64,000 bases of DNA, taken from positions 1 to 64,000 of the forward strand of contig CAWBHS010000038.1 in NCBI GenBank assembly GCA_963788655.1. The letters are read 5' to 3'. Shown here one piece after another: positions 4,986-30,166 of the stretch. This DNA is from an uncultured Verrucomicrobiae bacterium (GTDB lineage: Bacteria > Verrucomicrobiota > Verrucomicrobiia > Limisphaerales > JAFGQR01). Both the position numbers and the translations under genes were made by a program. How positions within the stretch are numbered: position 1 is the first letter of the stretch; each line of letters begins with the position of its first letter. A model generated the notes under the pieces. It saw nothing but the letters and a program-made list of their open reading frames with translations, searched no databases and had not been told where the DNA came from.

Positions 4986-5522
4986 ATGACCATTCTGAAA
5001 ACTGTCTCGAGAACCCGCAGGTCGGCGCCCACCGCCGGTTTTACCCTCATTGAAGTCTTGCTGGTGATTGTCATCATCCTCTTGCTGGCCGGGGCGCTGG
5101 TGGTGTTTGTGCTGCCGCAGCAGGAAGGCGCGGAGAAGAACACGACCCGGTTAAAACTAAACAATATCGCCACCGCTCTGGATACCTACCGGCTCAACAT
5201 CGGCCATTATCCCACGGAGGACGAAGGTGGGCTGGAAGCGCTGTTGAAGAAACCGAGTTTTGAGAATGAGCGCCTGGCCGAAAAATGGATGGGACCCTAT
5301 CTCAAACCGGGTACGAAGTTGGAAGACTCCTGGAACAACAAACTTGAATACGAAGTGGTGGACCGGACGCTCGAAACCGAAAACGTGGGTTTGCCGTATC
5401 GGCTGTATTCCATCGGTCCGGACGGCCAACCCGACACCGATGACGACATCAAGTATGCCACGGAAGTCGAAACCGACACCATGGGCACCGGCTCGGCTTC
5501 GGACAGTTCGACGACCAAGTAA
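4986..5522 (+). CDS. gspG: Type II secretion major pseudopilin
   Basis: G|FTLIEVL prepilin motif; ALDTYRLNIGHYPT, WMGPYL, DSWNN, YSIGPDGQPDTDDDI T2SSG signature. Confidence 0.92.
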   Translation: MTILKTVSRTRRSAPTAGFTLIEVLLVIVIILLLAGALVVFVLPQQEGAEKNTTRLKLNNIATALDTYRLNIGHYPTEDEGGLEALLKKPSFENERLAEKWMGPYLKPGTKLEDSWNNKLEYEVVDRTLETENVGLPYRLYSIGPDGQPDTDDDIKYATEVETDTMGTGSASDSSTTK

Positions 5523-8203: not shown

Positions 8204-9765
8204 ACCGTCCGGCGCCCATCACTACGCTTCGCCGCAAAAAACGGGCGCCGCACTTCGCGGTTGGCACGACGGCGACACTTGTGCAAAACGGGGCGCGGCC
8301 TTCAGGCCGCTTCAAGCCCCGGAAGATACTCAGTGGTTTGCCCAGTAGTGCGACGAAGCGGCGTAAACGCCGCGCTCCGACCGTAATTGACCTCACGTGT
8401 CGCAATAGTGCTGGCTCCGGTTTCGTCCTCATTGCCGTGCTGGTGGTGATCATGCTGACGTCGATGATCGCAATCAGCCTGCTGTTCCGGGTGCGGGCGG
8501 AAGACACCGCCAGCGCTGCCAGTGCCGGGAATGAACAAGCCTGGGCCGCGGCCATGAGTGGCGTGCAGGAAGTGATGCGGTTTATGAAAGCATGTCCGGC
8601 CGGCTCGCTGGACTGGCAGAACAGCCCGGACACGTTTCACGATCACCAAGTGTTCGATGACGGCGCTGACCGCTGGTATTTCACGGTTTTCACGGCGGGC
8701 GATCCGACGGAACTGGAAGAGATTCGTTACGGCCTGACGGATGAAGCCAGCAAACTTAACGTCAATGAAGCCACCGAGGAAGCCCTGGGTAAACTGCCGA
8801 AAATGGAACCGCAACTGGTGCAGGCGCTGCTCGATTTCATCGACCTCGATGATGAGGCGCGCCCCGAAGGTGCCGAACAGGAGTATTACGATGCGCTGCC
8901 GAATCCCTACGTGATTCGCAACGAGCCGCTGGCTTCGCTGGACGAATTGTTGCTGGTGCGCGGTTTCACGCCGTCCCTTGTGTACGGCGAAGACATGAAC
9001 CTCAATTTCCGGTTGGACCCCAATGAAAACGACAGCGACCAATCGTTTCCGCCCGACGACAACAACGGCAAACTGGATTTGGGCTTGCGCGGCTATCTGA
9101 CGGTGGCTTCGTACGACTTGAACGAAGACAGCGACGGTTTCCCCCGGACCAACATCAATGACCCGGACGACCCTTTGCCGGACACGGACCTGCCGGACAC
9201 CACCCTTGCCTACCTCGAGGCGTTGCGCCGGAGTGGGGTGTCGCTCGAACAACCGGCTGACTTGCTGGACGCCAAAGAAAAATTGAAAGATGAGAATGGC
9301 AAAGAAGTCGAAATGGAATCCGGCGTTGATAAAGCCGTGCTGGCGACGGTGCTGGATGTATTGACAACCACCGCCGACACGCGGTTCGATGGGCTCATCA
9401 ACATCAACACGGCCTCGGCGACGGTGCTCCAAACCATACCGGGCATTGACAGCTTGGTGGCGGAGTCCATCCTGTCTGCCCGGCATTATGTGGCGCCGGA
9501 ACGCCGCCAGACCATTGCCTGGCTGTTGCAGGAAGGCGCGGTTTCTGCGGACGTGTTTAAGCAGATTGCGCCTCATCTGACGGCGCGCAGTTATCAATAC
9601 AGTTTTCATGTGATTGGATACGGAGTTCCCTCCGGACGTTATCGAGTGTTTGAAGCAACCGTGGATTTTGGACAGGTCGAACCGGCAATCTCGTATTTGC
9701 GCGAGATCACCCGGCTGGGCTTGCCATTCAAAATCGAAGTGAACCAGGAGGTGACCAGTGGCTAA
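8200..9765 (+). CDS. gspK: Type II secretion minor pseudopilin GspK with a 74-aa leader containing a repeat
   Basis: SG|FVLIAVLVV; DEASKLNVN, ALLDFIDLD, GAEQEYY, ELLLVRG, ININTAS GspK motifs. Confidence 0.9.
   Translation: MNRPAPITTLRRKKRAPHFAVGTTATLVQNGARPSGRFKPRKILSGLPSSATKRRKRRAPTVIDLTCRNSAGSGFVLIAVLVVIMLTSMIAISLLFRVRAEDTASAASAGNEQAWAAAMSGVQEVMRFMKACPAGSLDWQNSPDTFHDHQVFDDGADRWYFTVFTAGDPTELEEIRYGLTDEASKLNVNEATEEALGKLPKMEPQLVQALLDFIDLDDEARPEGAEQEYYDALPNPYVIRNEPLASLDELLLVRGFTPSLVYGEDMNLNFRLDPNENDSDQSFPPDDNNGKLDLGLRGYLTVASYDLNEDSDGFPRTNINDPDDPLPDTDLPDTTLAYLEALRRSGVSLEQPADLLDAKEKLKDENGKEVEMESGVDKAVLATVLDVLTTTADTRFDGLININTASATVLQTIPGIDSLVAESILSARHYVAPERRQTIAWLLQEGAVSADVFKQIAPHLTARSYQYSFHVIGYGVPSGRYRVFEATVDFGQVEPAISYLREITRLGLPFKIEVNQEVTSG
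8221..8387. repeat. REPIN-like element in the GspK leader
   Basis: Inverted pair GGGGCGCGGCCTTCAGGCCGCTTC (8290) / GAAGCGGCGTAAACGCCGCGCTCC (8355). Confidence 0.75.
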
Positions 9766-11527
9766 CTCGGTTCCCACTCCGAAAAACAAGTTGATCAAAC
9801 TGCGTCTGCCGCTACGGCGAAAACGCTCCCGCAGCCGGCCGCGCGGCCAGATCACCGCCATCGACGTCGAAGGCGACATTTTGCGCGTGGTGCAAACCTA
9901 CCAACGTAACGGGCGTACCCGCGTCTCACGCGTCGCAGTGGAACAATTGGATATTAGCGACAAAGCCAGTCTGGCCGATCCGGATATCCTGGGCCGGGCC
10001 ATCGCGAAAGCCCTGGCGCATTTGCGCGTCAAACCGGCGCAAGTGGTGATGGGTGTGCCGCGCGCACTGGTGGTTCTGCGGACGTTATCGTTACCCGCCA
10101 TCGATAACGTTCGTGAAGTAGCTTCTCTGGTGCATTTTCAGATCGCCAAAGATCTGCCGTTCAACATGGACCAGGCGGTGATTGATTTTAAGGTTCTTCG
10201 CTCGGTAACCTCGACCCCCGCCGGAACCAACTCGTCCGGCAGCGAGGCCAAAGATGCCAAGGAATCTGCCGAGACCCAGCCCAAACTGGACGTGCTGGTG
10301 GCCGCCGCCAACCGGGAGGTTATCGGGTTTTACGAGAAAACCGCCGCCGCCGCCGGCTTCAAGCTGATGGCGCTCGGTTTTCGTCCTTACGCCAATGCCC
10401 GTTGCGTGGAAGCCTGTCGGATTGCGGGGCCGGATGAAAGTGTGGCGTTTGTCACGTTGCGGCCGGACGAAGTGTTGGTGGACGTGATTGCCCAGCAGGA
10501 CTTGGTGTTCAGCCGCGGCACCTCGACCAAGCTCGATTACGAAACCGCCGCAACGGCCTACGTGACGGACGGTCAACTGCCGGAGCCGGAATTGCCGGCG
10601 GACCCGGAGCAACTTACGCCGGAAGCCGCAGCCTCCCTCAAGGATTCCGAGAATTCTCTCGTCGAAGCCATTACCATCGAAGTGGTCCGCAGCTTCCACG
10701 GGTTTGGAGGTATGGAAGTCAAGAATCCGGTTTCGCGCCTGGTGCTGGCCGGAGCCACCGGGCACGAGAACGTGGTCGTGGAAGCGCTCCGGAAGCGGCT
10801 CAACATTCCCTGCGAACTCATGGAACCGGCGCGCGCCTTGGACCTCCCCCTCGAAGCGCGCGGTTATGCCTCGGGCGCCATTGCTGCGTTGGGGTTGGGG
10901 CTGAGCATTTTCGATCCGCAAGGATTGCCCTTTGACTTCCTGAATCCCAAGCGACCGGCAGTCCGTCGCAACCTGCGGCGTATCAAGCTCCTTTCCGGAA
11001 TCGCCGCGGCGGCCCTGCTGGCGGTGACGCTAGGCGGGATTGAATTCTATTTGCTGCGCCAAAAGAACCGGGAACGCGACGCCCTGCAAGCCCAGTTGAA
11101 AGTTGAGGAAGGCCGGCACGATTTGTATCGGCGGATGCGCATCCAGGCGCTCGGAATCAAGAACTGGTTGGACGGCGGACAAAGCTGGCTGGATCATTAC
11201 GCCTATCTGAGCAGTGTGTTGCCGTCGTGCCAGGAAGTCTATATTACCGCCTTGAGCATCAGCAGCCGGGGCAGCATTAATTTGGCGGTGCAATCCCGCA
11301 GCGGCGAAGTGTTGGCCAAGCTCGAAAAACAACTCAGCGAGGCCGGTTACCAAGTCCAACCCCTGGCGATCAAGCCGGGGCGGGACAAGTTTGATTATCC
11401 ATTTCGCTCGAGCGTGGAATTGATCATCCCGGACCAACTGAAGATTGATTTGTCCAAACTGAATGTTCCGCCGCGTCCGGAAGACGACGCCTCGTTGGAT
11501 TCCGGGACCAAAGGAGGTGGCTCATGA
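9758..11527 (+). CDS. PilM-like actin-fold domain + TM + PilN-like domain (GspL-like assembly protein)
   Basis: TAIDVEG, VVLRTLSLP, DLPF..DQAVIDF, LVLAG, FDFLNPKR followed by TM helix and periplasmic ferredoxin-like segment. Confidence 0.8.
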   Translation: MANSVPTPKNKLIKLRLPLRRKRSRSRPRGQITAIDVEGDILRVVQTYQRNGRTRVSRVAVEQLDISDKASLADPDILGRAIAKALAHLRVKPAQVVMGVPRALVVLRTLSLPAIDNVREVASLVHFQIAKDLPFNMDQAVIDFKVLRSVTSTPAGTNSSGSEAKDAKESAETQPKLDVLVAAANREVIGFYEKTAAAAGFKLMALGFRPYANARCVEACRIAGPDESVAFVTLRPDEVLVDVIAQQDLVFSRGTSTKLDYETAATAYVTDGQLPEPELPADPEQLTPEAAASLKDSENSLVEAITIEVVRSFHGFGGMEVKNPVSRLVLAGATGHENVVVEALRKRLNIPCELMEPARALDLPLEARGYASGAIAALGLGLSIFDPQGLPFDFLNPKRPAVRRNLRRIKLLSGIAAAALLAVTLGGIEFYLLRQKNRERDALQAQLKVEEGRHDLYRRMRIQALGIKNWLDGGQSWLDHYAYLSSVLPSCQEVYITALSISSRGSINLAVQSRSGEVLAKLEKQLSEAGYQVQPLAIKPGRDKFDYPFRSSVELIIPDQLKIDLSKLNVPPRPEDDASLDSGTKGGGS

Positions 11528-12537
11528 AACCGCGCGAGAAACTGTTGCTGTTCGGCATCCTCGGCTTCGTGGGCGTGTTTGGATTGGGCTTCGGGCTCAA
11601 GACGATTTTGACCAAACCCCTCAAGGCGGCCGACCAGCGCAATGCCGGATTGCGCGGCAAGTTGAATAAACTCAAGGAGGAACGCCGCGCTTTTTTCGAA
11701 GCCGAAGACCGCGTGAAATCCTGGACCCAGCGCACGTTCGCCGATTCGGTGGATGACGCCAGCGCGCGATCCGGGGCCGTGCTCACCCAACTGATCCTGC
11801 AAAGCGGCCTGCCGGAAACCGCTTTCACCCGGCTGCCCGTCGGCCCGCGGCGGATCCGCGCTAAAGGCGACATGGAAATCGGCTGGAACATCCAGGGCGG
11901 CGGACCGTTATCCAACGTCATCAACCTGTTGTTCCTGCTCCAGGAATCGCCGCAAATTCACCGGATCGAAAGCATTGTGATCGGCACGGCGGACAAATCC
12001 GGCCAGGTCAAAGTCCATTTCAAATACCTGACGTTGGTGGTCATACCGGCGCCGGACGTGGAACCGCTGAAGCTTCCGGAGATCACCCTCGAGAATCCCA
12101 AGCGCCAATTGTATAAACCGATTGTCCGGCGCGACATTCTCCGGCCCTATATCAAACGTCCGCTCCCGCCGCCGGCACCGGCACCTCCGCCGACCGCGCC
12201 GCCACCCGCGCCCCCGCCAACACCGGCGCCGCCGGGACCGGAAACCTATCGCATCGTGTCGCTGAGCGACTGGGACGGTCAACCGGAAGTCCACGTGCGT
12301 GATCTCACCGCCAATAAAACGACCGCCTACAAATCCGGCGACGAACTGGCCGGCGGCGCGGTGGTGATGGTGGATTACCGCGCGTTGCCCATGCCGGGTA
12401 AGCCGGGGCTGATGTCTTATAGCCGCGTTATTCTCAAAATCGACGGCGAATACTGGGCCGTCGAGCGGGGTCAAACCCTGGCGGACAAATACAAATTGGC
12501 GTCCGAGCAATTACCGCCGCAATTGTCGCAACTCTGA
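11524..12537 (+). CDS. PilO/GspM-like protein with Pro-rich linker and C-terminal GspC/PilP-HR-like domain
   Basis: MKPREK-TM-coiled coil, FLLQESPQIHRIESI, poly-Pro linker, small beta-rich C-domain. Confidence 0.6.
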   Translation: MKPREKLLLFGILGFVGVFGLGFGLKTILTKPLKAADQRNAGLRGKLNKLKEERRAFFEAEDRVKSWTQRTFADSVDDASARSGAVLTQLILQSGLPETAFTRLPVGPRRIRAKGDMEIGWNIQGGGPLSNVINLLFLLQESPQIHRIESIVIGTADKSGQVKVHFKYLTLVVIPAPDVEPLKLPEITLENPKRQLYKPIVRRDILRPYIKRPLPPPAPAPPPTAPPPAPPPTPAPPGPETYRIVSLSDWDGQPEVHVRDLTANKTTAYKSGDELAGGAVVMVDYRALPMPGKPGLMSYSRVILKIDGEYWAVERGQTLADKYKLASEQLPPQLSQL

Positions 12538-12851: not shown

Positions 12852-15800
12852 ATGCCCCGACCCATTCATTTAAGCTGTGATCTCAATCTCATGAACGGAC
12901 TGAAACGATTCTGCAACGGACTGGTTTGCATGCTGGCCGCCGCCACGGTGGCGATGGCCCAGGATGCTTCCACGAATTCACCTCCCGCAACCCCGGTCCC
13001 CGCGAGCGCCCCGGCCGCCAGTGCGCCCGTTACGAACGTGCCTCCGGCTGCCACCAATGCTGCGAGTGCCGCACCGACGACAGCGCCCGCCACCAATGCC
13101 GTGTCGCCGGCTACGGAGGAAGTGTCTCCCGCCCCCGCCCCGGCGCCCGCCAAACCGACTGCGGCCGAGCGCAACATCCGGTTCCAGTTCGACGGCATGT
13201 CCTACAGCGAAGTGCTGGAGCGATTTGCGCAAATGGCGCACAAACCATTGCTCACCGAAACGAAGGTCGAAGGCACGCTCACGTACAACGATCCCAAGCC
13301 GTACACCTACCCCGAGGCGTTCGACACGTTGAACCTGATGCTCTCGATGAAGGGCCTGATGCTGGTGGAAACGGACCATTATCTGCGGCTGGTGCCGTTC
13401 AAGGAACTGCCGCAAATGCCCCTCAAAATCCTGCACGGCCTCGAACACGACGGCGATGTTCGCCCCGGCGAGGTGGTCACGGTGGTCTTGAGCTTGAAGA
13501 ATCTCGAAGCCGGCGAAGTTTCCCAATCGATCACGCCGATGCTCTCCAGCGCCGGCTCGGTGGCACCTCTTTCGCGCGGGCAGGGCCTGATCTTGACCGA
13601 CCACCTGGCCAACATTCAGCGCATCCGCTATTTGCTCGACCAGATCGACACTGAATCAGCCGTCACGCGGCAAATGAAGACCTACACGCTGGTCCATGCC
13701 TCCGGCGCGATTGTGGCCGATTTGATCAACAAAACTTTCGGCGCCAGCACCGCCCCGAAGCGCACCCGGCACAATCCCAAGAATTCCAGCCTCGATGTGC
13801 TGCCGCCCGATCCGGCGGACTACGTCACTTCGATCTACGACGAGGCCTCGCGGACGATGGTCCTCTGGGGTCCGACCGACCGCGTGACCCTCGCTGAGGA
13901 ACTGATCAACAAATTCGAGCAACAAGGCGGCCTGGGCGGCGACATCCGAATATATTATCCACAGGATCTCAAACTCGAGGAACTGGCCCAAATGATCCGC
14001 CAGGCCATTCCCGGCGTGGCGGCGCCGAATGAAAACGCCCCGACCAAGGCCCGCTTGATTCCCGATGCCAGCCAGGACCGGCTGATTGTGGTGGCGCCGA
14101 TTCCCGGGCAATTAGAGTCCATTGATAGTTTCATCAACCAGGTGGACAAGGGCGTGAAATCCACCGGCAACAACCCGGGACGCATCCGTTCGGAAACCAT
14201 TCAAGTGACCAAGGTCTTCCGGCCCCGCACCGCCGAGCCGGCGACCGTTGCCAAGATTCTCACCGAAGCCCTGACGCGTCGCCTGCCATCCGGCGCAACC
14301 GCTACCAGTGCCAATGTCAGTGTCGAGCCCGGCAGTCAGAGCGTGGTGGTCAGCGGCTCGCCGTCCGACGTTCAAACCGCCATCAGCGTCCTCGCTCAAC
14401 TCGAGGACGGCACGGTGCCGACCGAAGCGCTGCAAACGAAGTTCTTCGAAGTGGGCAGCGCCGCCGAGGCTAAACGCCTGGAAACACTGGTCCAACAACT
14501 CTATCGCAACCAAGTCGGCGAGCCCGCCAACAAACTGCCCTCCGCCGCCAAGATTGTGGCTGAACCGGACTCAGGCCGGTTGATTGTTACCGCCACACCG
14601 GAGCACCTCACCTTGATTGAAAAACTGCTCAAAGATCTCCAGTCCGAGCCCACCGCGACGCAACCGCGCAATCTGGAGATTTTGACGCTGGACCACACGC
14701 AGGTGAACGACGTGATCAAGAACCTGACCAGCCTGGTGACCGAGCGGATGAGCGAAAAACGGTTCCAGGATTTGCCCAAGCCCGTGATCACGCCCGACGC
14801 GGCCAACAACCGATTGCTGGTGACCGCGACCGCGGAACAGCTTAAGGAAATCAAGTCCGTGCTGCAGATCCTCGACCTCGAACCGGCGCTGGTGCCGCGT
14901 CAGACCCGGATTTTTAAACTGGAAAATCTCCGGGCCGACACCGGCCTGGCCAGCTTCAACAACCTGCTCAACGAGCGTCTGACCGATAAACGTTTCGTCA
15001 ACCAGCCCAAACCCACCATTACGCCGGACGTTCCCAACAACCGTCTGTTGGTCACCGCTTCAGCGGATCAACTCAAGGAAATCGAGGAAGTGCTGCAATT
15101 GCTGGACGTCGCGCCCGAGCTGGCCAAGCGCGACCTGCACGTGGTCACGCTTAAGCACCTGCGCGTCGATACCGGGCTGACCAGCATCAACAACCTGGTC
15201 AACGAACGGATGGCCGATAAACGCTTCGACCGGGTGCCCAAGCCGACGCTCGTGCCCGACGCGCCCAACAACCGGCTGGTCATCACCGCCACGGACGAGC
15301 AGTTCCAGGAGATCGAACAAGTCATCAACCTCCTCGACGTGGTGCCCGAAACGGCGAAGCGGGAGATGAGAGTCATTGCCATTCAGTCCAAGTCCGCCGG
15401 CGAAATCATCAGCTTGACCACGCAACTGATGACGCAGTTGGTCGAGGCGCAGCCCAATCCGCAACTCGCGCCCAAGCTCATCCCCGATCCGTCCGGCCGG
15501 CAAATCATCGCGCTAGCGACGCCCAGCGATTTGCAGCGCCTCGAAACGTTTATTCAACAACTCGACACCGCTGCCGCCACGTCCGCAGCGCGGCAATTCA
15601 AAGCGGTGGAATTGTTTAGCCGTAATGCCACTGAGTTGACGCCGCTCGTCCAGCAACTGTATCAGGAACAGTTGAAAGGCCTGGCCGAACCCGCCGGCGG
15701 CGCCGCCACATTGCTGGCCGACACCAAGAACAATCGCATCATGGTCAGCGGATCAGAAGCGGAGATCGCCCGCGCCGAGGCTCTCATTCGCCAGTTGGAT

Positions 15801-18800
15801 CCGGAGAGCCTGAAGGGCACCAAAGAGGAAACGCGGGTGGTCCGCTTGAAATCGGCGCTGGCCGCCGAACTGGCGGCGTTGGTCGAGAAAAGTCTCAATG
15901 CCCAGTCGCAGCAGATCAAGGTGCTCGTGGACGCGCGCAGCAACAGCCTCGTGCTCACCGGCGATTCGGCCGCGGTCGAAGCCGCGTCCAAGGTCATCGA
16001 CCAACTCGACACCCGCTCAGACATGACGCCGCGCGAAATTCGGATCATGGATCTGCGCTCCGGCGATGCCACCACCGTGGCGCCAATGGTCACCAGCCTG
16101 TTCACCGAAATGATCAAGGACAAGCGCGGCCCGGAGTATGTGGCGCAGGCCAAGATCGTGGCGGATACCTCGGCGAACCGCCTGATTGTCACCGGTCCGA
16201 AGCCGGAGCTTGAGATGGTTGAGGAATTGGTCAAACAATTGGACGAAACCCCGGGACAATCCAGCGGCGCGCGTGTCTTCAAGCTCAATTCCGCCGACGC
16301 CGGCGTGTTGGCGCCCATTGTTTCCAACGCCATGATGCGGTTCGACGTGCGCGGACAGCCGATCCGCAAAGTGACCGTCTCCGCCGACCCGAAATCCAAC
16401 AGCCTGATCGTGACCGGCTCGCGGACGGATTTACAGGACGCGGCGGTGATCATTGAAGGACTGGACGGCGACTCCGGCGGCTTCCTGGCCAGCGATCAAA
16501 CGCGCCAGCTCAAAGTCATCAAAGTCAACACGGACGATCCGGCCCAGTTGGCGCAATTGGCGTTGCAGGTGTTCACCGCGCAAAACCTCGGCCGCAATTT
16601 GACCAATGTCCTCACCATCACCCCCGAGCCGGTCGGCAAGCGGCTGATTGTGATGGCGCCCGCCACGTTGATGCCGCAGGTCGAAACGGTCATCAAAACG
16701 TTGGACCTGCCCACGGAACAGGAACCACGTGGGTTGCACCCGGTGGATTTGAAAAATGCCCGGGCGCAGGAACTCATGACCTCGGTCAACCGGATCTATG
16801 CCGAGCAAACGCAGGGCAAGCCCGGCAAACCGGCCACGATTTATCCGGACACCGCCGGCAAGCGGCTCATGGTTTTTGGCACCCAGGAACAAGCGGCCGC
16901 CATTCAGCAGATCGTCGAAGCACTGGAAAGCCAGGCGAAGACCCCGCGGGAGACCAAGGTGTTTGATTTCGGGTTGCCGACCGAAGCACAACGACTTATG
17001 CCGTTGATCCAGCAGCTCTACAAAGACCAACTGGCCAACGATCCCACCGCCGGTCCCGCTGACGCGCAACTGATCACGGATCCGCGTTCTGGTCGGGTCA
17101 TTGTGTCGGCGCGGACGGATGACTTGAAACGCATCGAGGACATCGTGGCGACGCTCCAGCCGATCACGGACACCAACCTGTTGACCCGCGAAACGAAAGT
17201 CTTCGACTTGGGCCGGCTGGCCGAGGCGCAACGGGTGTTGCCGCTGGTCCAGCAACTGTACCGCGACCGGCTCACGAATGACCCTGCCGCCGGAGCGCCG
17301 GACGCGCAAATGATCAGTGATGGCCGCACCGGCCGCATCATTGTTTCGGCGCGCCAGGACCAATTGCAACTCATTGAAAATATTTTGACCGACTTGAAGC
17401 CGATGACGGATACCAATCAGGTGACGCGCGCCACGAGGTCGTTCGAGGTCGGCACGCCGGCGAATGTCGAGCGGTTGCTTCCGTTGGTGCAAAAGCTTTA
17501 TACGGATCAGTGGAAGGACCGGAGCGAGGAAGATCCGGCGGATGCACAAATCATGGGCGATCCTCGCGCGGGCCGGATTATCGCCACGGGCAAAACCAAT
17601 CACCTGAAGCAGATCGAAGCCATCCTCCAGCAACTCGGGGTAAACGTCAGCGGTGACTCGAACGCACCGCCCAGCAAATTGAAAACTGCCGAACGCGAAA
17701 CGCGCATCTTTGACCTCACTTCGGCCAACGCCGTCGAACTGGCCACCACGGTGCGGACACTTTACCTCGACCAGGTCAAAAGCCGGTTGGGCTCGCTTCA
17801 GCCGGATACGCTCATCGTTCCCGACGTCAATGCCAACCGGCTGATTGTGGTCGCCGAGCCGATTGAGCTCGCGGCAGTTGAAGACATCGTCCAGAAGCTC
17901 GACAAGGTGAGCGCCCAGAGCGCCTCGGCCCGCGTGTTCAAGTTGAAGTCGGCCGACCCGACGAAGGTCAGCGAAATTCTGCAAAGTGCGCTGGTTACCT
18001 ACGACTCGTATGGCCGGCCGCGGAAACGCGTCACCATTAGTGTCGATGCCGCCACCCGTACGATCATCGCCACGGGCGACGCCAAGGAATTGCAGGCGGC
18101 TTCGGTGATTATTGAACAGCTCGATTCGTCGCTCGGGACTCAGACGGACCGGCAAATGAAGGTTGTTTCGTTGAAGAACGTTCGCGCCAGCGAGCTATAC
18201 ACCAAGGTGCAACAACTGTATCAGGACCAGGTTAAAAGCCGTCCGGAACTGGGCATTGCCGACGCCCTCGTGATGCCCGACGCCACCAGCAATCAGCTCA
18301 TTCTGGCCGGCAGCACCGCGCAACTCGAACTGATCGAAAAGATCATCAACGACCTGCAAGCCGCGCAAGCCAACCAGGCGCCGCGCGAAACCAAGATGAT
18401 CGACATCGGCCCCGCCGATGAAGTCACGCGTCTCCTGCCGTTGGTGCAGCAACTCTATCGCGAACAATGGCGCGACCAGGATCCGAGCGATCCGCCGGAC
18501 GCGCAGATCATACCCGATACCAAGAATGGCCGCTTCATTGTCACCGCGCGAACGAATCACATCGCCGCCATCGAGGACATTGTGAAGAAGGTGCAAGGTG
18601 ACCGGACGGCGACCGCCGACCTGCGCGAAACCCGCGTCTATGATTTGACATCCGCCACGGCCATCGAACTGGCCACCACGGTGCGTTCGTTGTATTTGGA
18701 GCAGGCCAAGGCGCGGCCGGGTTCGGCGGCCAGCGACACCATCATTCAGCCCGATCCCGGCGCCAACCGACTGATTGTGTGCGGCACAACCAACGAATTG

Positions 18801-21800
18801 GCGATTGTGGAAGACATTATCACCAAGCTCGACAAGGTCAGCGCGCAAAGCGCCTCGGCCCGCGTGTTCAAGTTGAAGTCGGCGGACCCGACAAAGGTCA
18901 GCGAGATTCTGCAATCGGCCTTGGTGACGTATGACTCGTATGGCCGCCCGCGGAAACGGGTTACCATCAGTGTCGATGCCAATACGCGCACCATCATTGC
19001 CACGGGCGACGCCAAGGAATTGCAGGCGGCGTCGGTGATTATTGAACAACTCGACTCCTCGCTCGGGACTCAGACGGACCGGCAAATGAAGGTTGTTTCG
19101 TTGAAGAACGTTCGCGCCAGCGAGCTATACACCAAGGTGCAACAACTGTATCAGGACCAGGTTAAAAGCCGTCCGGAACTGGGCATTGCCGATGCCCTCG
19201 TGATGCCCGACGCCACCAGCAATCAGCTCATTCTGGCCGGCAGCTCCGCGCAACTCGACTTGATCGAAAAAATCATCAACGATCTGCAAGCCGCGCAAGC
19301 CAACCAGGCGCCGCGCGAAACGAAGATGATCGACATCGGCCCCGCCGACGAAGTCACGCGTCTCCTGCCGTTGGTGCAGCAACTCTACCAGGAACAATGG
19401 CGGGACCAGGCACCGAGCGATCCGGCCGACGCGCAGATCATGCCGGACACGAAGAATGGCCGGTTCATCATCACCGCCCGCACGAATCACATTGCCGCCA
19501 TTGAGGACATTGTGAAGAAAGTCCAAGGCGACCGCGCAGCCACGGCGGAATTGCGTGAGACGCGCGTCTATGATCTGACGGCCGCCACCGCCGTCGAACT
19601 GGCGGCCACGGTGCGGTCGTTGTATTTGGAGCAGGCCAAGGCGCGTCCGGGTTCGACCGCCAGTGAAACCATCATTCAACCCGATCCCGGCGCCAACCGG
19701 CTGGTCGTTTGCGCGACGACGAACGAGTTGGCGATGGTCGAGGACATCATCACCAAGCTCGACAAGGTCAGCACCCAAAGCGCTTCCGCCCGCGTGTTCA
19801 AGTTGAAGTCGGCCGACCCGACGAAGGTCAGCGAAATTTTGCAAAGTGCGCTGGTCACCTATGACTCGTATGGCCGGCCGCGGAAACGCGTCACCATCAG
19901 TGTCGATGCCGCCACCCGCACGATCATCGCCACGGGCGACGCCAAAGAATTGCAGGCGGCTTCGGTCATTATCGAACAACTCGATTCTTCGCTTGGGGTG
20001 CAGGCCGAACGCCAGATGAAAGTGGTGCCGTTGAAGAAGGCGCACGCGACCGAATTGGTCAGCCAAGTGCAGCAATTGTATCAGGACCGCGTCAAGAGCA
20101 ATCCCGAATTGGGCCTCGCCGACGCGTTGATTTTGCCTGATGCCACGAGCAATCAACTTATTCTAGCCGGCACGGAACCGCAGGTGAAGGTGATCGAAGA
20201 CATCGTGAGCCAGCTCGTCGAACACGCCGCCGCGCAAGGTCCGCGCGAAACCAAGTTCTTCGAGATCGGGCAACCGGAGGAAGTGCGCCGCGTTCAGGCG
20301 CTGGTGCAGCAATTGTACACGGACGAGTGGAAGGACAAACAACCGCAGGATCCGGCCGACGCCCAAATCCTGCCCGACGAACAGAACGGGCGTCTGATTG
20401 TCACTGCCCGCCAGGAGCATTTGGCGGCCATCGAAAAGATCATTACGCAAATCCACCCGGAGCGCGCCGAAGCCGCTGCCATCGAAACAAAGGTTTACGA
20501 TTTGCAGGCCACGTCCGCTGCGGAGTTGGCGACGACCGTCAAAACGTTGTACCAGGAACAGCTCAAATCGCGTCCCAGTGCTCCCGTCAGCCAGGCCACC
20601 ATTCTGCCGGACCTCACCGCCAATCGACTGATCGTTTCGGCAACGACGAATGAACTGGCGGCGCTGGACGCCATCATCAAGAAGCTCGATGACGTCAGTC
20701 TCCAATCCGGCCGCACCCGGGTGTTCAAATTAAAGTCCGCCGAAGCCGAACAGGTCGCGTCGGTGCTGTCCACCGCGTTTACCGAGATGAGCCGTTATGG
20801 CCGTCCCCTGCCGCGCGTGAGCGTCGGGGCTGACCGCCAGAATAATTTGTTGATTGTTTCCGGCGAACCCAAGGACCTCCAGGCGGTGGCGACGATCATC
20901 GAGGAAATGGATTCCGCGATCACGCGCGGCAAGCGTTCCATGCGGATCTTTGCCTTGAAGACCGGTCTCGCCACCGAAGTTTCCAGCCGGGTGGAGCAGC
21001 TTTACAAGGATCAGGTTAAAGGCAGTGCGGAGGGCGGCACAGCGGACGCGTTGATCATGGGCGACGATGTCAGCAACCGGCTGATTGTCACCGCCAGCGA
21101 CGCGCACATGAAGGTGATCGAGAGCATCGTCACCCAACTCCAGGAAGCCGGCGAAGGCACGGGACGGCAGACGCGGGTGTTAATGCTCGAACGCAATTCA
21201 GCCAGTTCCATCGCCGCCATGATGTCCCAGTTGTTCTGGCGCGAGACGCGGAGCACCGATCCCGGCCAGCGCCTGGTTATCACCGCTTCCCCGGATGATC
21301 GCACGCTGCTGGTGGATGCCACCGGCCAGATTCTGGAAAAGGTCGAGCAGCTAGTGAAGACGCTCGACAGCGATGAAGCCAAAGGCGCGTTGGAAGTCCG
21401 CACCTATCAAATACCGGATGGCAACGCCATGCTGCTGGCGCAGGGTTTGTCGCGGATGTTCATGGAACGGGGGGGCGGCGCTGGCGGGCCGGCGCCACGG
21501 TTTGAAGGCGATCCCACATCGAACATCCTTTTGGTCGGCGCCACCAAAGACCAGTTTACGAAAATCGACAAGTTGATCGAAGAATTGAAGGCCTCGGTGT
21601 CCGTGACCAACGAGATTCGCACCTTTGTATTGAAGAACGGCGATCCGGAACAAGTGTCCCAAGTCCTGGAGGACATGTTGTCCGACGGCGGGTCGTCGCG
21701 CGGTTCGGGCGGATATCGCGGACCGGGATCCTACATGTATCGCATGCGTAGCCGCGGTGGTGCCAGTCTCAACGAAGTTCGTGTGACACCGGCGACCTCG

Positions 21801-24800
21801 CTCAACGCCGTAGTCGTGCAGGGGCCGCCGGAGAAGCTGGTGATCGCCGAACAATTGGTCAAGACGCTGGACAGCGAGGAAGGTCCGGGCAAATGGGAAG
21901 TGCGCACCTACGAGGCGCCCGAAGGCACGGCGTTCAACCTCGCCCAGAGTCTCCAGCGTCTCTTTGCCGAACGCGGCGAACGGCCCCGGCGGGGCATGGA
22001 ACCGCGGTTCGAAGCCGACGCCGGCGGCAGCGTGCTGATGGTCGGCGCCACCAAAGACCAGTTCGAACAGATCGACAAATTGATCACGGAATTGAAAACG
22101 TCCGTGTCGGTCACCAACGAAATGCGCACGTTCGTGCTCAAGAACGGCGATCCCGAACAAATCGCTAACGTGCTGGAAGAAATGTTGACCGGCGCATCCG
22201 GTTCCTCGCGGCGCTTTGGCAACCCCGGCCGGCCGGGCAACTACCGCTATGGCCGTTCCGGCAGTTCCAGCAGCGAAGTCCGCATCGCGCCGGCGCCTTC
22301 TTTGAACGCCATTGTCGTGCAGGGACCGCCGGACAAACTGGCGCTGGCCGAACAATTGGTCCAATCGTTGGACAGCGAGGAAGGTCCGGGCAAATGGGAG
22401 GTGCGCACGTATCAGGCGCCCGAAGGCAGCGCGGTGACTCTGTCTCAAAGCCTGCAACGCCTCTTTACCGAACGGCGCGGGCCGAACACCGTCGGCCTGC
22501 AACCGCGCTTCGAAGCGGACGCCAACGCGGACGTCATCATGGTGGGCGCGACCAAGGATCAATTCGAACAAATCAGCAAGCTCATCACGGAATTGCAGAG
22601 TTCGATATCGGTCACGAACGAGATGCGCACGTTCGTGTTGAAGAATGCCGATCCCGAACAGGTCGCCAGCGTACTCGAAGAAATGTTGGCCGGTGGTGCG
22701 GGGGGCTCCCGCCGCGGTGGTGGTGGCAGGGCTTACGGTGATGCCAACGGTTCTCCCTTTCGCTATGGCCGCTCGCGCGCCACTGGCCCCAGCAATGTCC
22801 AGGTGGCGGCGGCACCTTCGTTGAAAGCGGTGGTCGTTCAGGGGCCGCCGGACAAACTGGTTTTGGCCGAGCAACTGGTCAGATCGTTGGACAGTGAGGA
22901 AGGCCCCGGCAAATGGGAGGTGCGCACGTACCCGGCGCCCGAGGGCAGCGCGATGAACCTCGCGCAGAGCCTGCAACGGTTGTTCACCGAACGCGGCGGG
23001 CCAACCCGCACCGGCCTGGAGCCGCGGTTTGAAGCGGACATGAATTCGAATGTCATCATGGTGGGCGCAACGAAAGATCAGTTCACCCAGATCGATAAGC
23101 TGGTGGAAGAAGTGCTGAAGTCGGCCGCCCCCACGAGTGAGATTCGCACGTTCATCTTGAAGTTTGCCGAGCCGGAACAGATTTCCAACGTGCTCTCCGA
23201 CATGTTGTCCGGCACTGGCGGTTCTTCCCGTTCCACCACTTATTATCCGGGGGCGTCGTATCGCTATGCGCGTATGGGCGGTGCCGCCACCCGCGAAGTG
23301 CATGTTTCGCCCGCGCCCGCGCTGAACGCCGTGGTGGTGCAGGGTCCGCCGGACAAAATCGTGGAAGCGGAGAAACTGATCGCGACGCTCGACAAGGAAG
23401 ACGCCGAAGGCCAGAACGTCATCCAGGCCGTTCACCTGGCCAAAGGCCGGGCGGAGGACATTGCCGAGGCGCTGTCACAAAACATCGCCGACCGCACCAG
23501 CCGCATGCAAGGCGCGCCCAAGACGCGCATGCAGCGTGTGAACGTAACCGCCGTGGGCGGTGCCGACAGCCTGCTCATCAGTGGTCCCGGGGACGCGGTC
23601 AAAGAAGTGTTGTCCATCATCCGCGAACTGGACCAGGAGAGCAAAGGCGACGAAATCGAAGTGCGGATTTACAAACTGGAAAACGGCGAAGCCAAGGAGA
23701 TCTCGACCGTGATCCAACAACTCCTGCTCAACGTCACCCGCGCCACGCCGCGCAGTAAGTCCCTGGCGCGTAATGTTCCGGCATCGGTGTCCGTGGACGA
23801 AAAATCCAACAGCCTGATCATTTCCGGCACGGCGGCGCACTTCAGCGTGGTCGAGAAAGTCCTGCCCACGCTGGACAGAATTCCCGAACGCGCCGACCGC
23901 GACATTGACATCGTGTGGCTGCAAAACGCCCAGGCCATGGACGTGGCGTTCACATTGAATTCCGCTTTTGAAGCGCGCGACGAAAAAGACCGCCCGGTCA
24001 TCGAATCGGACATCATGGCCAACACGATCACGATCATTGGGAAGAAGGCCGACATCGCGCACATCCAGGACATGATCGCCCGCATGGACGAACCGTCGAA
24101 CGACAACTCGGTGCAAGTCCGGTTGCGGGCGATCACCAGCGTGCCGGCGGAGCAAATGATCAAAATGTTGACGAACATTTATCCGCAGATGGTCTTCGGC
24201 CAAATCCGGGTGGTGGACAAACTCAAGCCGCAGCCGATGAAACCCGAAGCGGCCCGGAAGCCCGCCGGCACGAACCAACCGCCAGGGGCTCCGGCGCTGC
24301 CGACCAGCCCTACCAACCGCCGCCGGTGCCGCCGGAAGTGGTCATCGCGCTCGACAAAGAAGCCAACGCGCTGATTCTCTCCGGTCCTACGCGGGAATTG
24401 GATCAGGTGGAGCGGATTATCTCCGAACTGACCTTCAACTTCATTACCAGCGATGCCGAGTTCCGGCTCTATCCGCTCAAGGAAGCCGACCCGGTGGTGG
24501 TGGCGCGGACCTTGACCGAACTGTTCCGCGAGCCGGCCGTTCAAGTGCAGCAACAACCAAAGCAAGGCCAACCGCAGCAGCAAAACCAGCCGCCTCGCGC
24601 GGTGGTGCCCAAGCCCAAGCTGACGGTCGTGGCCGAACCGCGCACCCGTAGCGTCATCGTGCGCGCCAAACCCTCGGATTTCCCGCTGGTGGAGGGCCTC
24701 ATCAAACAGCTCGACGCCGCGGACCTGATGGCGCAATTGGACTTTCGCGTGGTGCTCCTCACCAATGCCCAGCCCGAAAAGGTCGTGGGCCTGGTGCAGC

Positions 24801-27800
24801 AAATGGTCAAGCAACTGGGCGAAGTCCGGCCCGGTGACCCGCTCACGGTCACGGTCGATACCCGTTCGCGCGGCTTGCTGCTGGTCGCGCGTCCCAATGT
24901 GTTGGATCGCATCGAGCAAATGGTGCGCGCGCTGGACGTGCCTTCGGAATATGAACAGGCCGAAGTGCTGGTGGTGTCGCTCAAGAAGGCCAGCGCGCCG
25001 CAATTGGCCAGTGTACCTGCAGAACATGCTCAAGCCCGGCACCGAGGGGCAACTCACGCCGGAAGCCCGCGAACTCCAGGAACAAGTGCGGAAGTTGAGA
25101 ATCAAGAATGACGCCGGCGAGGAAGTCGTCCTGGACCTGACCAAGCCCATCAAGATTTTGCCCGATCCACAAACCACCGGCACTGGCGGTAACCGGCTTA
25201 TCCTTACCTCGACGCCGGACAACCTCAAAGCCCTGCAAGCCGTCGTGACCATGATGGACAGCGTGCCGGTGCAGGAAGGCGTGGACGTGAAACTCATTCA
25301 CCTGGCCTTTGCCGACGCCAACACGGTGGCCCAGACGTTGACCACCATTTTTACTCAGGGCAAACAACTGGCCACCGGCCCCATTCCGAATGCCCAACCG
25401 GAAAGCGAGTCCGGCAAAGCCCTGGTCAACCCGCTCAACGTGGCCATCGATCCGCGGTCCAATACGCTCATCCTCAGCGGCCAGAAGGAGAGCCTCGACC
25501 TGGCGCTCAAAGTGGTCGATGACCTGGACCGCGAACTGGACCGGTTCATGACCGACGTGAAACTGTTCCGGCTGAAGCACGCCTCGGCCACCCGCTTGCT
25601 GCCGTTGTTGCAATCCGTGTTTGCCGAAGGGCCGGCGGTGCCCGGTTCCGAAGGTTTGAACACCATGGTAACCCGGTTGCGCACGGCGGTGGAGCAAGGC
25701 GCTCCGATTACCACCCTGCAACCCAAGACGCGCGCCGCACTGGTGGTTCAGGCCGACGACATTGCCAACATTCTCATCGTGGCCGCCCGCACGGATGCCA
25801 TGCCCTTGATCGAGGAAGTGATCAATCAGTTGGATATTCCCGCCGCCTCCGGCATGGACACTATCCGCATCTACCCGCTCAACCATGCCGACGCGAGCGC
25901 CATTCAGAAAATCATCACCGACCTCCACACCGGACCGCGGGCCGCCTCGATCCGCACGGAAGACCGGCCGACGGTTACGGTCGATCAACGCAGCAATTCC
26001 TTGATTGTTTCCGGCAATGAAAAAGCCTTCGGCATTATCGAAGGCTTGCTCAAAAAGTTGGACCAGGAACTGCCGTTTGAATTGCGCGACATTCGCATCG
26101 TGGCGCTCGAAAACGCGGACGCCACGGTTGTGGCCGGCACGTTACAGCAACTGATGGATGCCCGCGTAACGCGCCGCGCCGCATTGGACCAGCAACAGGC
26201 GGATCTGCTCAAGGTGATCATTGTGGCCGATCCGCGCAGCAACAGCCTGCTCGTTGGCGGCTCGAAAGACAGTTACGAATTGGTCACCTCGCTGGCCCAG
26301 CAATTGGACCAGGCGGCGCCGGCGTTGAGCGGACGCATCCGGTTGGTGCCGCTGCAATTCGGCGACGCGCGGTCCATCGCCATTGCGCTGGGCCAACTCT
26401 TCACGCAACGGTATTCCATGGCCCGCACGCCAGACGTGCAGCGTAGCCGGCCAGTCATTGTGGCCGACCCGCGCAGCAACAGTTTGTTGGTGGCTGCCAG
26501 TGTGGATGACAACCAGGCTATTGATGAACTGCTCAAGAAGCTCGACCAGAAATTAGACGACCCGTCGATGGTGATCACCGTCGTGGGCTTGCAGCACAAT
26601 GATTCCACCCGCGTCGCGGCTACGTTGGAATCGGTTTTTCAAGCTCGGTTGCGCGCGCGTCGAGTGCCGGGCCAGACGCCGTCGCCACAGGACATGGTGA
26701 ACGTCGAGCCGGAGTCGTTGAACAACTCGCTGATCATCTACGCGAGCAAAGAGAACCAGGAACTCATCAAGGGTTTGTTGGAAAAGATTGACGTGGAACC
26801 CGTGGCCCTCGGCGGGATCATTCAGACCTTTACGCTGCAATTCGCCGATGCTCAGCGCGTGGCCACCATGCTGCAGTCTTTGGTGACGCAGGGACTCTAT
26901 CGTCCCGGCGCTTCCTCTCCGCGCGGTCCCGGCGCCGCCCAGCGCAACGCTTTGGCGGTCACGGTCGATCCCCGCAGCAACACGTTGATTGTGTCCGCCA
27001 GTCCGGAAAACATGCTGGTCATCAAGGAAATCATCAATCGGGTGGACACCCAGGACATGGCGGAAACGGGCAATGTGCGCTTGTACCAACTCAAGAAGGC
27101 CCGGGCGAGCAGCCTGGCCACCGTGCTCGAACAGTTCTTTCGCTCGAAGCGCGCCGCGGAATCCACCGGCATCAACGCGGCCGAACGCACCGTGCCGGTT
27201 TCAGTCATTCCCGACGACCGCAGCAACACCTTGCTGGTCACCGGGGGCAAGGAAAGCTTCGATGTTCTCGAACGGATCATCAAGCAACTGGACGGCGATG
27301 AGATTTTCGCGCGGATGAATTTCAAGGTGTTCCCGTTGAAGCAAGCCACCGCCACCAAGTTGCAATCCACCTTGCAGCAAATCTTCGCCAACCGCCCACC
27401 GCGCGTCCGCGGCGAACCTCTCGATCCCATCACCATCGTGGCCGACTCGTGGGTTAACGGGCTGATTGTGGGGGCTTCGACCGAAGATTTGGAAATGGTG
27501 GGCTCGCTGATTGAGCAACTCGACAGTGAGCCGACGGAAGGCGGGTTGTCCGTCCAGGTGTTGCCCCTGGCCAAAGCCAACGCCACCCGCGTGGCGCAAA
27601 CCATCCAGGGCCTGTTCCGCGAAGGCACGGCCGGCGCCGCCATGCCCGTGTCCGTCAGCGCCGACGAGCGCATCAATGCCATCGTCGTCTCCGCCGGCGA
27701 AGCGGACGCCAAACGCATTTCGGACTTGGTGAAGAAACTGGACACCGACCAGGTGGCCAAAGTGGCCGAGATTAAAATCTTCCCGCTCCAATATGCCCGG

Positions 27801-29585
27801 GCCGATTCCCTGGCCACCATCCTCAACCAGGCCCTGAATCAGAAGCCCACGCCGTTGACCGAGCAAAGCCCCAATGCCCAATCGCTGCTCCAGTTTGTCG
27901 CGCGCACCCAGGACGGCAAAGCGTTGGTTACCGCCGCGCTGCGGGAAGCCGTCTTGATCACGCCGGACGTGCGGATGAATGCGCTGATCGTTTCCGGCCC
28001 CGTCGATTACATGGGCTTGCTGGAACAAATCATCACCCGCCTGGATTCCAGTTCGCCGCAAGTGGCCAAGATCAAGGTGTTCCAATTGCTGAATGCCGAC
28101 GCCCGCCAAATGTCCGATGTGCTGAGCACGCTCTTCCGCATGCAGCAAGCCGCCACCGCCAACCAGCGATCCATCGAATACACGCTCGTCAAATCCGATT
28201 TCAGCGGTCTCGATATGTTCGGCCCGGACCAGGAACTGGCTTCGGCCACGCTGGGCACCGCGGAACAAAGCGCGCTGACCGTGACGGTGGATCCGCGCAC
28301 CAACAGCCTGCTGGTCGGCGGCACCGAACACTATGTCGAGCTGGTTTCCGAGATTGTGACCGCGCTCGACGCGAATCCCGGGCAGGAACGGCATTCGGAG
28401 GTTTATCGCTTGAAAAACGCGCAGGCCCTCGGGGTGGCAACGGCGGTCCGCAGTTTCCTGGACCAGGAACGCCAGCGGGTCACCCAAGTCCTGGGTGCCG
28501 ATGCGGTCGGCACGGCCCAGCGGTTGCTCGAGCAGGAAGTCGCCATCGTGGCCGAGGAAGTCAGCAACACCCTGTTGGTTTCGGCCAACCCGCGTTATTT
28601 TACCCAGGTCAAGGCGCTCATCGAACAATTGGATCAACCCCAGCCGCAGGTGCTCATCCAGGTGTTATTGGCCGAAGTGACGCTGGATTCGACCACGGAA
28701 CTGGGTGTGGAATGGAGTTATGCCGGCGCCAAGAGCGGTAACAATTTTCTCACCGGCACCGACTTTGGCGTGGCCCAGGAATTGCAGACCTTCGGCGGTT
28801 ACTCGGCCGCGGTGACCGGTAGCGATTATACGTTCCTGTTGCGGGCGCTGAAAAATGATGGGCGCCTGGAAGTCCTGAGCCGCCCGCAAATCTTGACCGC
28901 CGATAACAAACCGGCGTCCATCAACATTGGCCAACGCGTCCCGCTCATCACCGATAGCCAGATCACGCCCCAAGGCGGCTCGGTCACCACATTCCGCTAT
29001 GAAGACGTCGGTATCAACCTGACCGTGACGCCGCGCATCAGCCCGGACGGCCTGGTCAGCATGGAAGTCTCCACCACGAACAGCGCCATCAGCAGTTCGA
29101 CCGTCCAGGTCGGCTCGTCGGCCAATGTCCCGATCATCAACTCGCGCCGGGCCACCACGTCCCTCAGCGTGCAAAGCGGCCAAACTATTATCATTGGCGG
29201 GCTCATTTCCACGACGGATGACGAGCGCGTGAAGAAAATGCCCTTGCTCGGCGATATTCCCCTGATCGGCGCGCTGTTTCGCAGCTCCCGCCGGGCGACC
29301 GACCGGAAAGAATTGTTGATCTTGCTGACCCCCCAGGTGTTGGCCAGTCGCACCAACTCGGTGGGCGTGGACGCGGAAAAACTGACGCGGGAGAACTTGG
29401 ATCGTTCGACGATCAAAGATCAAATCAAACGGGATACGTTACAAAAACAACTGCTGGATCCGCTGTTCCCGACGATCAAGGAAGAGAAGCCACAACCGAC
29501 CCCGGGACCGCAATCCAAAAAACCCGCGGTTGATCCGGTTGATGCCGCCGTCCCGATCCGTTACGAAACGCCCGACCCATCATGA
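12852..29585 (+). CDS. gspD: Giant GspD-type secretin (~5,570 aa), split into three ORFs by two compensating indels (~24320 and ~25010)
   Basis: Signal peptide, N0 (IRFQFDG..GTLTY), ~62 KH-like N repeats (L..A.A..V...L....D..SN.LIV), C-terminal QVLIQVLLAEV, LSRPQILTADNKPASINIG, KMPLLGDIPLIGALFRS; first and last ORFs share one frame. Confidence 0.9.
17901..20690 (+). repeat. Intragenic tandem repeat, 930-bp (310-aa, four N-domain) period
   Basis: GACAAGGT.AGC...CGCGTGTTCAAGTTGAAGTCGGC at 17901, 18831 and 19761; first two copies nearly identical in DNA. Confidence 0.92.
21370..23400 (+). repeat. Intragenic tandem repeat of a two-N-domain unit (~500-520 bp, four copies)
   Basis: GACAG.GAGGAAGG.CC.GGCAAATGGGA at 21870, 22371 and 22890; VVQGPP.KL motif four times. 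Confidence 0.88.
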
Positions 29586-30166
29586 CCGGAATTCTACCGA
29601 TGGCGCGATTATTGACCACGACTCTCCTCCACTTTAGCCGCCGCATCGGATCGCGGTTCTCCGGGGGCATGCTGCGTTGTGTTCTCATCGGGTTGGCGGT
29701 TGCCTTGCTGACCGGATGCGCTTCCAGCCGTCAGGGAACCACGAGTGGCAACGCCGCACCCAACTCGCCCATTGACCGCATTCACATCATCAGCCAGCCG
29801 GTGGCCATCAACTTCGACCAACTTCCCGGGGCGGACGGTTTCGGCGTTACCCTGTTTGCCACGACCGCCCGCGAGCCTAAATCTGTGGCTATTCCCGAGG
29901 GCAAACTGGAAATCTTGATGTATGACGGTCTGCTCAAAGTAAGGGAATTTGCCACGACCAAGCCCCTGAAAACCTGGACCTACACCGCCGAAGAACTCCG
30001 GGCGTATGCTGCCAACGGCTCCATTGGCGTTGGGTACCGCCTGACTCCTCAATGGGGTGACCAGGTGCCGACGCAAAACCGCATCACCGTCCTGGCCCGC
30101 TACACGTCTCCGACCGGGGCGGTTCGCTATTCCGAACCCACCGTCATCTCCCTGTTGGCCGGGTGA
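29582..30166 (+). CDS. Lipoprotein coupled to the secretin gene (candidate pilotin); start may be 29669
   Basis: LAVALLTG|C lipobox; ATGA overlap with the secretin stop. Confidence 0.7.
   Translation: MTGILPMARLLTTTLLHFSRRIGSRFSGGMLRCVLIGLAVALLTGCASSRQGTTSGNAAPNSPIDRIHIISQPVAINFDQLPGADGFGVTLFATTAREPKSVAIPEGKLEILMYDGLLKVREFATTKPLKTWTYTAEELRAYAANGSIGVGYRLTPQWGDQVPTQNRITVLARYTSPTGAVRYSEPTVISLLAG

Follow-up and report, generated by a model that had tools for sequence, protein, structure and literature searches.

The length of a secretin is thought to match the distance between two membranes. The GspD family of the type II secretion system (hereafter T2SS), including PulD, XcpQ, ExeD, and EpsD (TIGR02517; structures 6hcg, 5wq7, 5wq8, 5wln, 5zdh, and 6i1x), combines a signal peptide, an N0 domain, three KH-type N domains, and a barrel, with a mean length reported as 555 ± 151 aa (PMC4827864). 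The height of the T2SS secretin is given as ∼220 Å for Klebsiella and 350 Å for Deinococcus (PMC10828601), and PilQ of Thermus is described as having six rings, a height of 350 Å, and a periplasm of ∼70 nm to cross (PMC5745081, PMC4463427). Thermus thermophilus PilQ and Deinococcus radiodurans GspD (DR_0774), in which extra periplasmic rings or height are linked to a thick envelope, serve as a precedent for ring number following envelope width. Here we analyze a 64,000-nucleotide stretch of DNA (contig CAWBHS010000038.1, positions 1 to 64,000; hereafter the window) from an uncultured Verrucomicrobiae bacterium of soil/sediment type in the order Limisphaerales, which at 12852–29585 on the + strand encodes one GspD-type secretin of ∼5,560 aa with a signal peptide, N0, 62 KH-type N domains, and a barrel. 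Its surroundings are those of a T2SS, whereas Thermus PilQ belongs to a type IV pilus, and the protein would form ten times more rings than either tall precedent.

Domain organization of the giant secretin

The upstream reading frame (12852..24374) encodes 3,840 aa and a second frame (24729..29585) lies in the same register; when the chain was read through with an X at each of the two breaks, it came to 5,576 aa. The first ATG of the frame is at 12852, and the likely start is the ATG at 12891 (MNGL..), which matches the same-genus orthologue P0002 and gives a product of ∼5,563 aa. A hidden Markov model (HMM) built from the gene's own repeats identified 62 units, 61 of them at E<1e-3 together with a weak N1 (aa 209–273), in agreement with the manual count of about 62 in a first-pass annotation made from the letters alone. 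That annotation had also described the repeats as KH-like N domains and had noted a signal peptide, an N0 domain, and a canonical barrel, each of which was recovered: Pfam Secretin_N passed in 34, 2, and 13 stretches of the three pieces (49 in all), the barrel matched Secretin (PF00263, E 1e-51) as expected of the secretin superfamily, and N0 gave a weak match to PF21305 (aa 113–176, E 1e-4, below the cut-off).

The T2SS model TIGR02517 scored 620.6 bits (cut-off 351) versus 331 for the PilQ model and 284.5 for the SctC model, all of these scores being inflated by the repeats. Foldseek comparison of the barrel region returned GspD structures as the best matches (5zdh, E 7e-32; 6i1x; 6hcg), and a profile of the middle super-repeat had GspD (6hcg, E 1e-25) as its best match among structures. 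The order of domains, N0 (by its weak match) followed by KH-type Secretin_N domains, is that of GspD. Known T2SS secretins have exactly three N domains (N1–N3), whereas 62 are present here and 33 to 56 in 137 complete orthologue sequences. The hallmarks of PilQ were not seen: the three pieces hold no AMIN or B domain by Pfam, and the operon reads G-H-I-J-K-L-M/C-D instead of PilMNOP with a retraction ATPase.

The signal peptide (12891..12959, assigned from the sequence and orthologue N termini) and N0 (13170..13421, where TIGR02517 positions 1–261 align to aa 111–390) are followed by a conserved N-terminal block of repeats R1–R18 (13476..17669), delimited by the repeat HMM and orthologue mapping. 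R19–R42 (17697..23417) make up a variable middle of four-domain (310 aa) and two-domain super-repeats, sister copies of which are up to 98.7% identical as protein and differ in DNA mainly at synonymous sites. Orthologue mapping also defined a conserved C-terminal block, R43–R62 (23418..28655), which contains both frameshifts, and the barrel with a C-terminal tail, conserved in the consensus and possibly an S-domain, occupies 28656..29585. All units are β-α-β-β-α, as AlphaFold models of the C-terminal block also show, with short GspD-like linkers, and every large insertion falls in the α1–β2 loop. The conserved insertions of R49, R51, R60, and R61 are constant in length across orthologues, and R46 carries a long Pro-rich loop. 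In phage pIV, a disordered N3 loop is reported to point into the pore (10.1101/2021.07.20.453082), and by analogy the α1–β2 insertions of the giant secretin may do likewise.

Frameshifts and authenticity of the repeats

Between ∼24320 and 25012 the gspD coding sequence runs in another frame, with one base missing in a Pro-rich stretch near 24310–24320 and one extra near 25013. The two changes compensate each other, leaving the flanking frames in register and the middle piece shifted, as the first-pass annotation had it when it proposed a single 16.7-kb gene with cancelling −1 and +1 indels. When proteins from relatives' loci were aligned to this assembly, 52 conserved loci (one of them counted twice) spanning 77,750 bases showed 10 frame switches, or ∼0.12 per coding kb, so that ∼2 are expected across a gene of 16.7 kb. 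That the giant gspD of this genome is a recent pseudogene or encodes two separate proteins, for which the two frameshifts in the assembly speak, is highly improbable in view of this rate and of several further observations. Breaks of the same kind affect the cognate GspE gene and several further ATPase genes of the assembly; both breaks sit within domains (repeats 46 and 49), not between them; the shifted piece shares 79% identity with the same-genus orthologue (G001), from which it differs mainly at silent sites, 93 of 180 identical residues being specified by different codons; and open frames of at least 3,000 aa are found in 64 of the 81 relatives with the gene (the other 17 being shorter). 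The same-genus orthologue is intact at 5,121 aa. These comparisons indicate that both frameshifts are very probably assembly errors. The repeats as an assembly artefact were ruled out, since DNA differences between the duplicated blocks are mostly synonymous and exact DNA repeats in the gene reach 134 bp at most. For example, R20 and R24 are 98.7% identical in protein sequence, and a 78-codon window over both contains 21 synonymous codon differences and 1 non-synonymous difference.

Distribution and variation in repeat number

Using the barrel as the query, we found the giant secretin clade, with one copy per genome, in 82 of the 301 genomes analyzed from the order, its own included. Homologues in protein records are named as Verrucomicrobia, Pedosphaera sp., or Limisphaerales and derive from metagenome-assembled genomes wherever the organism is given. 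Among 148 new representatives (50% identity), chosen by a ranking that favors long proteins, 133 had at least 20 N domains (maximum 58), and 2 of the 10 representatives looked up were named Phycisphaerae or Phycisphaeraceae. A phylum-wide sample of 400 other genomes, only two of them from the same order, yielded a single match at E<=1e-48, a 402-aa frame, and with this query the clade was not detected beyond the order in the sample.

The median number of N repeats in the 137 complete orthologues (117 database proteins plus 20 from loci, with some overlap) was 44, and the 62 repeats described here are the most among the sequences examined. When each repeat was mapped to the nearest repeat of this gene, the ends were found to be fixed and the middle variable: R2–R3 were kept in 137 of 137 sequences, R9–R15 in 126, the complete R43–R62 block in 126, and R55–R62 in 137. 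The database set had been retrieved with the N-terminal part and is thus biased; the corresponding numbers for the 20 loci retrieved by the barrel were 20, 12, 14, and 20. The 20 C-terminal repeats are conserved position by position (46–72% identity). In distant members the expansion lies between R47 and R48 instead, with R49–R50 and R61–R62 retained. Such a pattern, constant at the ends and variable between them, suits a spacer.

In a quick secretin tree (94 rows, two outgroups, about half of the representatives left out), the giant clade received 80% support and a split short GspD formed the sister clade. The copy in this genome (C60:59313-62101) is the nearest paralogue of the giant barrel (41–44% identity) and has the same operon order, and across the order this protein is of normal total length in two or three separately exported chains; we group the mitochondrial GspD/GspDN pair, as reported in PMC8134430, with it for comparison. 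Its operon (C60:59313-72169, L041) is of ordinary size and encodes one chain of N0 plus N domains and another of the barrel, the latter with a signal peptide of its own, and in two relatives' loci (L044 and L047) the protein comes in three chains. The sister barrel occurs in 206 of the 301 genomes, and two barrel lists place it in 63 of the 82 giant-secretin carriers. Four small genomes of 2.6–2.9 Mb (G046, G106, G142, and G176) keep the giant secretin, at ∼3,200 aa in three of them, and the query used did not find the short sister there.

Co-evolution of N-domain residues

Mean-field direct coupling analysis was carried out on 11,856 repeats pooled from 294 proteins of at least 2,000 aa (11,640 repeats after a gap filter; effective number of sequences, Meff, 6,652), with the variable loop columns 26–34 dropped. 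The strongest couplings rebuilt the monomer with both helices on one sheet face, and 17 of 90 pairs between sheet face A and the inner helix sides had z>=2.8. A second coupled patch joined the opposite sheet face (positions 39, 41, 48, and 50) with helix 1 on its outer side (18, 21, and 22); 6 of its 90 pairs had z>=2.8, whereas control blocks had 0 and 2 of 90. These pairs were 39-21 (z 6.0), 41-18 (z 5.0), 39-22, 48-18, 50-22, and 39-18. The 39-21 coupling was found again in non-overlapping sets of distant (z 5.7) and near (z 4.7) proteins, as well as in 16 half-samples, the halves of which share close kin (mean z 5.1, minimum 4.2). At positions 21 and 39, opposite charges were enriched 2.3- and 2.05-fold and like charges reduced to 0.11- and 0.45-fold. 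Coupling in the second patch was present in the expanded middle, reached z 6.4 in repeats more than 20 from the C-terminal end, and was weaker (z 3.0) in the last 14; under stricter reweighting it fell to z 4.1 and 41-18 left the top six. Between one repeat and the next it was not seen (z −0.0 and 1.8). The outer sheet face is hydrophobic throughout, with position 48 hydrophobic in 97% of repeats. For axial contacts, couplings between repeats i and i+1 (top z 6.5) did not stand out clearly from those of the i to i+2 control (top z 5.4).

By helical-wheel reasoning, the second-patch pairs cannot touch within one domain, and they would therefore reflect packing against the same repeat of a neighboring chain. 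The patch may be the helix-on-sheet interface of ring-building motifs. Neighboring N3 domains of pIV are also described as packing hydrophobically (10.1101/2021.07.20.453082). We conclude that the co-evolution pattern supports, although it does not prove, like-with-like lateral packing as expected for ring stacking, and that it specifies neither symmetry nor geometry. It would represent the first evidence, of an indirect kind, that added N domains stack as rings.

The type II operon and companion lipoprotein

The giant gspD is the last gsp gene of an operon with the order gspG-H-I-J-K-L-(M/C)-D, followed by a lipoprotein gene, with all features on the + strand. The major pseudopilin GspG (4941..5522) exceeded the cut-off of its model (TIGR01710, 100 bits; cut-off 88.9) and matched PF08334. 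The minor pseudopilins follow in T2SS order with matches below cut-off: gspH (5538..6272; PF12019, E 1e-6; TIGR01708 below cut-off), a gspI-like gene with a long leader (6301..6972; TIGR01707, E 1e-3, below cut-off, position conserved in relatives), a gspJ-like gene (6956..8203; PF11612, E 9e-5), and gspK (8200..9765; PF21687 and PF03934; NF037980, E 2e-25). Next, gspL (9758..11527), found in 15 of 21 loci, encodes a PilM-like cytoplasmic domain (PilM_2, E 6e-16), a transmembrane segment, and a PilN-like part, with a weak TIGR01709 match. The product of 11524..12537 has a transmembrane segment, an M-like domain, a Pro-rich linker, and an HR-like domain with a weak GspC_delta match (E 0.013, aa 190–288) and is conserved upstream of gspD; position and layout make it a probable GspM-GspC fusion, a departure from known T2SSs. 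Orthologues of GspE and GspF are encoded on other contigs (C75 and C82), with 75–78% and 63–69% identity, respectively, to operon-linked copies, and in four relatives (G040, G121, G288, and G002) the two genes adjoin the operon. A prepilin peptidase (PF01478) is encoded on C24. No retraction ATPase was found in the operon clusters examined. In its domains, operon company (pseudopilins G–K, L, a probable M/C, E, and F), and best sequence and fold matches, the system corresponds to a T2SS.

The lipoprotein gene (29582..30166) starts in overlap with the gspD stop. It directly follows gspD in 18 of 20 loci, and members of the family occur in 85 of the 301 genomes, all 82 giant-secretin carriers among them, which makes the gene a good marker for fragmented assemblies. 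The protein has a lipobox (LLTGC) with an invariant Cys and a predicted immunoglobulin (Ig)/fibronectin type III-like β-sandwich (AlphaFold predicted local distance difference test score 87). Sequence searches gave no Pfam, NCBIfam, or Protein Data Bank match and matched no known pilotin; its Atlas neighbors are unnamed clusters from the Planctomycetes-Verrucomicrobia-Chlamydiae (PVC) group, and fold comparison returned generic Ig-like matches (best Z 9.4, root mean square deviation 2.6, 99 aligned). The Deinococcus T2SS is reported to have a belt of an Ig-like pilotin, GspP (PMC10828601), and the fold matches listed for the present protein did not include GspP. From its position and co-occurrence we infer that the lipoprotein may be the pilotin of the giant secretin.

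Several other features of the window were noted. The gspJ leader contains three in-frame 129-bp palindromic repeats (7015-7408), each of which ends at the residues that precede the prepilin cleavage site, and a similar element may be present in the unusually long gspI leader (6301-6550). Inverted repeats resembling repetitive extragenic palindromic elements precede gspD (12698-12789, 26-nt arms) and gspG (4756-4855, 25-nt arms). A promoter scan gave 0 sites versus 2.2 expected. Consecutive genes at 30675-36932 encode a circularly permuted ATP-grasp protein, an alpha-E protein, a fused ATP-grasp/alpha-E protein, and a transglutaminase-like protein, and 56778-58079 encodes a reverse transcriptase (RVT_1, E 1e-31), probably of a group II intron. 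Elsewhere in the genome, LEPR-XLL-like starts are seen on frames of 3,600–6,100 aa (C22:95581-113940, C81:58355-74611, and C23:9358-20262), and such frames reach 28,355 aa in relatives. LEPR-XLL giant exoproteins were considered as substrates and rejected, being present in 13 of 30 carriers versus 10 of 30 non-carriers.

Discussion

We find it somewhat better than an even chance that the giant gspD serves a dedicated T2SS in which the secretin is a long straight tube across a locally widened envelope, with a GspG pseudopilus inside. About 15 chains, a number taken from known GspD, would insert their barrels in the outer membrane with the help of the co-encoded lipoprotein, and each of the 62 N domains would pack laterally on the same domain of the neighboring chain. 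At 2.5–4 nm per ring, the resulting stack would be 170–260 nm long for 63 rings, with a computed mass of ∼9 MDa for a 15-mer; the same calculation gives 120–180 nm for 43 rings and 90–140 nm for 33. At the far end, N0 would dock with the GspC-like domain of an inner-membrane platform (GspE/F/L/M) that is itself ordinary, and a long GspG pseudopilus growing within the tube would drive folded substrates outward. The tube would bridge a local periplasmic expansion or outer-membrane extension where the membranes lie far apart, and lineages would adjust its length by gain or loss of middle blocks. The first-pass annotation had proposed ring stacking and a conduit of more than 100 nm; co-evolution, the hydrophobic outer face, and the short linkers favor the stacking, and the length holds if the tube is straight. 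Of its suggestions, a greatly widened periplasm was not supported for the whole cell. The other envelope proteins of the genome are ordinary (secretin frames 182–949 aa, BamA 861 aa, TonB 284 aa, and MCE proteins 340–531 aa) and most carriers keep the short sister secretin, so that the gap bridged by the giant secretin is probably local and not uniform, unlike Thermus with its wide periplasm throughout. A possible parallel is strain Ellin514 of subdivision 3, in which imaging showed an outer compartment free of ribosomes (PMC2647929), reinterpreted as an enlarged periplasm (PMC3422733); two newly cultured Limisphaera, by contrast, are described simply as diderm in a figure legend (PMC13608581).

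Several points weigh against the straight tube. We know of no precedent for a 200-nm pseudopilus inside a cell, and the inner-membrane partners are not lengthened. The co-evolution signal is moderate, the pooled repeats are not independent, and the assignment of sheet faces and helix sides relied on the pattern of couplings and on predicted secondary structure in place of coordinates; the same signal would arise from a tube that is spiral or kinked. An AlphaFold monomer of R52 through the barrel showed good local folds and a predicted template modeling score of 0.30, which is uninformative on overall shape. The N-modules of studied secretins are described as flexible, with their symmetry debated (PMC10550240).

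Three other arrangements were weighed. The rings might form and the tube be bent, coiled, telescoped, or laid along the membrane in an ordinary periplasm, as a long chamber or a lateral conduit from the inner-membrane platform to a distant outer-membrane pore. Normal-sized envelope machines, the retained short sister, the long Pro-rich loop in R46, and conservation of the 20 C-terminal repeats beyond the needs of a passive spacer all suit such a shape; like-with-like ring contacts, however, also predict position-specific conservation, the linkers are short, and a precise fold-back would tolerate poorly the range of 33–56 repeats and the lineage-specific expansion sites, so we regard this arrangement as unlikely. 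A tube that guides or anchors a GspG-built structure, either a long filament on the surface or a cell appendage, and is not a route for folded exoproteins, is quite doubtful. A pseudopilus spanning 200 nm already has the length of a pilus, the system is probably specialized since it coexists with an ordinary T2SS in most carriers, and secretins are reported to serve non-protein export, as in slime nozzles (PMC12475490); yet GspG passes the T2SS pseudopilin cut-off, H, I, J, and K are of the T2SS type, the operon clusters are without a retraction ATPase, and in the four small genomes the giant secretin is kept but the query used turned up no short sister. Finally, only the barrel-proximal repeats might form rings, the remainder being a flexible domain string with a role in tethering N0 to the platform or in substrate binding. 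The N-modules of solved secretins are described as growing disordered toward the N terminus (PMC10550240; 10.1101/2021.07.20.453082), but here the lateral couplings far from the C-terminal end are as strong as overall and it is the last 14 repeats that are weaker, and the outer sheet face is hydrophobic along the whole array; we consider this string very unlikely.

No secretin of this size was found in the literature searched (full text, with supplements and most subscription journals outside the coverage), and the word "secretin" does not appear in the accessible portions of two giant-protein surveys (10.1101/2023.11.21.568195 and PMC11573180). The first-pass annotation had put the locus forward as an undescribed system; no published description was found, while the locus is a complete T2SS operon with an extreme secretin in a widespread clade and not a one-off. 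The giant secretin is thus real, conserved, and apparently undescribed, a T2SS variant at an extreme scale. With slightly less than even confidence, we propose a broader view of the straight tube: a self-assembling structure of 100–260 nm with its length encoded in the gene, the longest periplasmic conduit known, which would span or itself set a specialized PVC envelope compartment (a wide periplasmic lumen or an outer-membrane extension), with ruler-like length tuning by block duplication and an intracellular pseudopilus ten times longer than that of model T2SSs.

From a conserved single-copy secretin that has 33–62 ring domains, occurs in 82 of the 301 genomes sampled from one Verrucomicrobiota order, and has relatives in Phycisphaerae, one would expect a visible structure of 100–260 nm. 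If straight, a tube of ∼200 nm would far exceed any studied secretion channel in length, would offer a natural modular nanotube, and would put the piston model of type II secretion to the test over a distance ten times longer than usual. The long-debated question of the PVC "paryphoplasm" or widened periplasm likewise becomes testable, because the length of the tube should follow the number of repeats and its position would mark where the membranes part.

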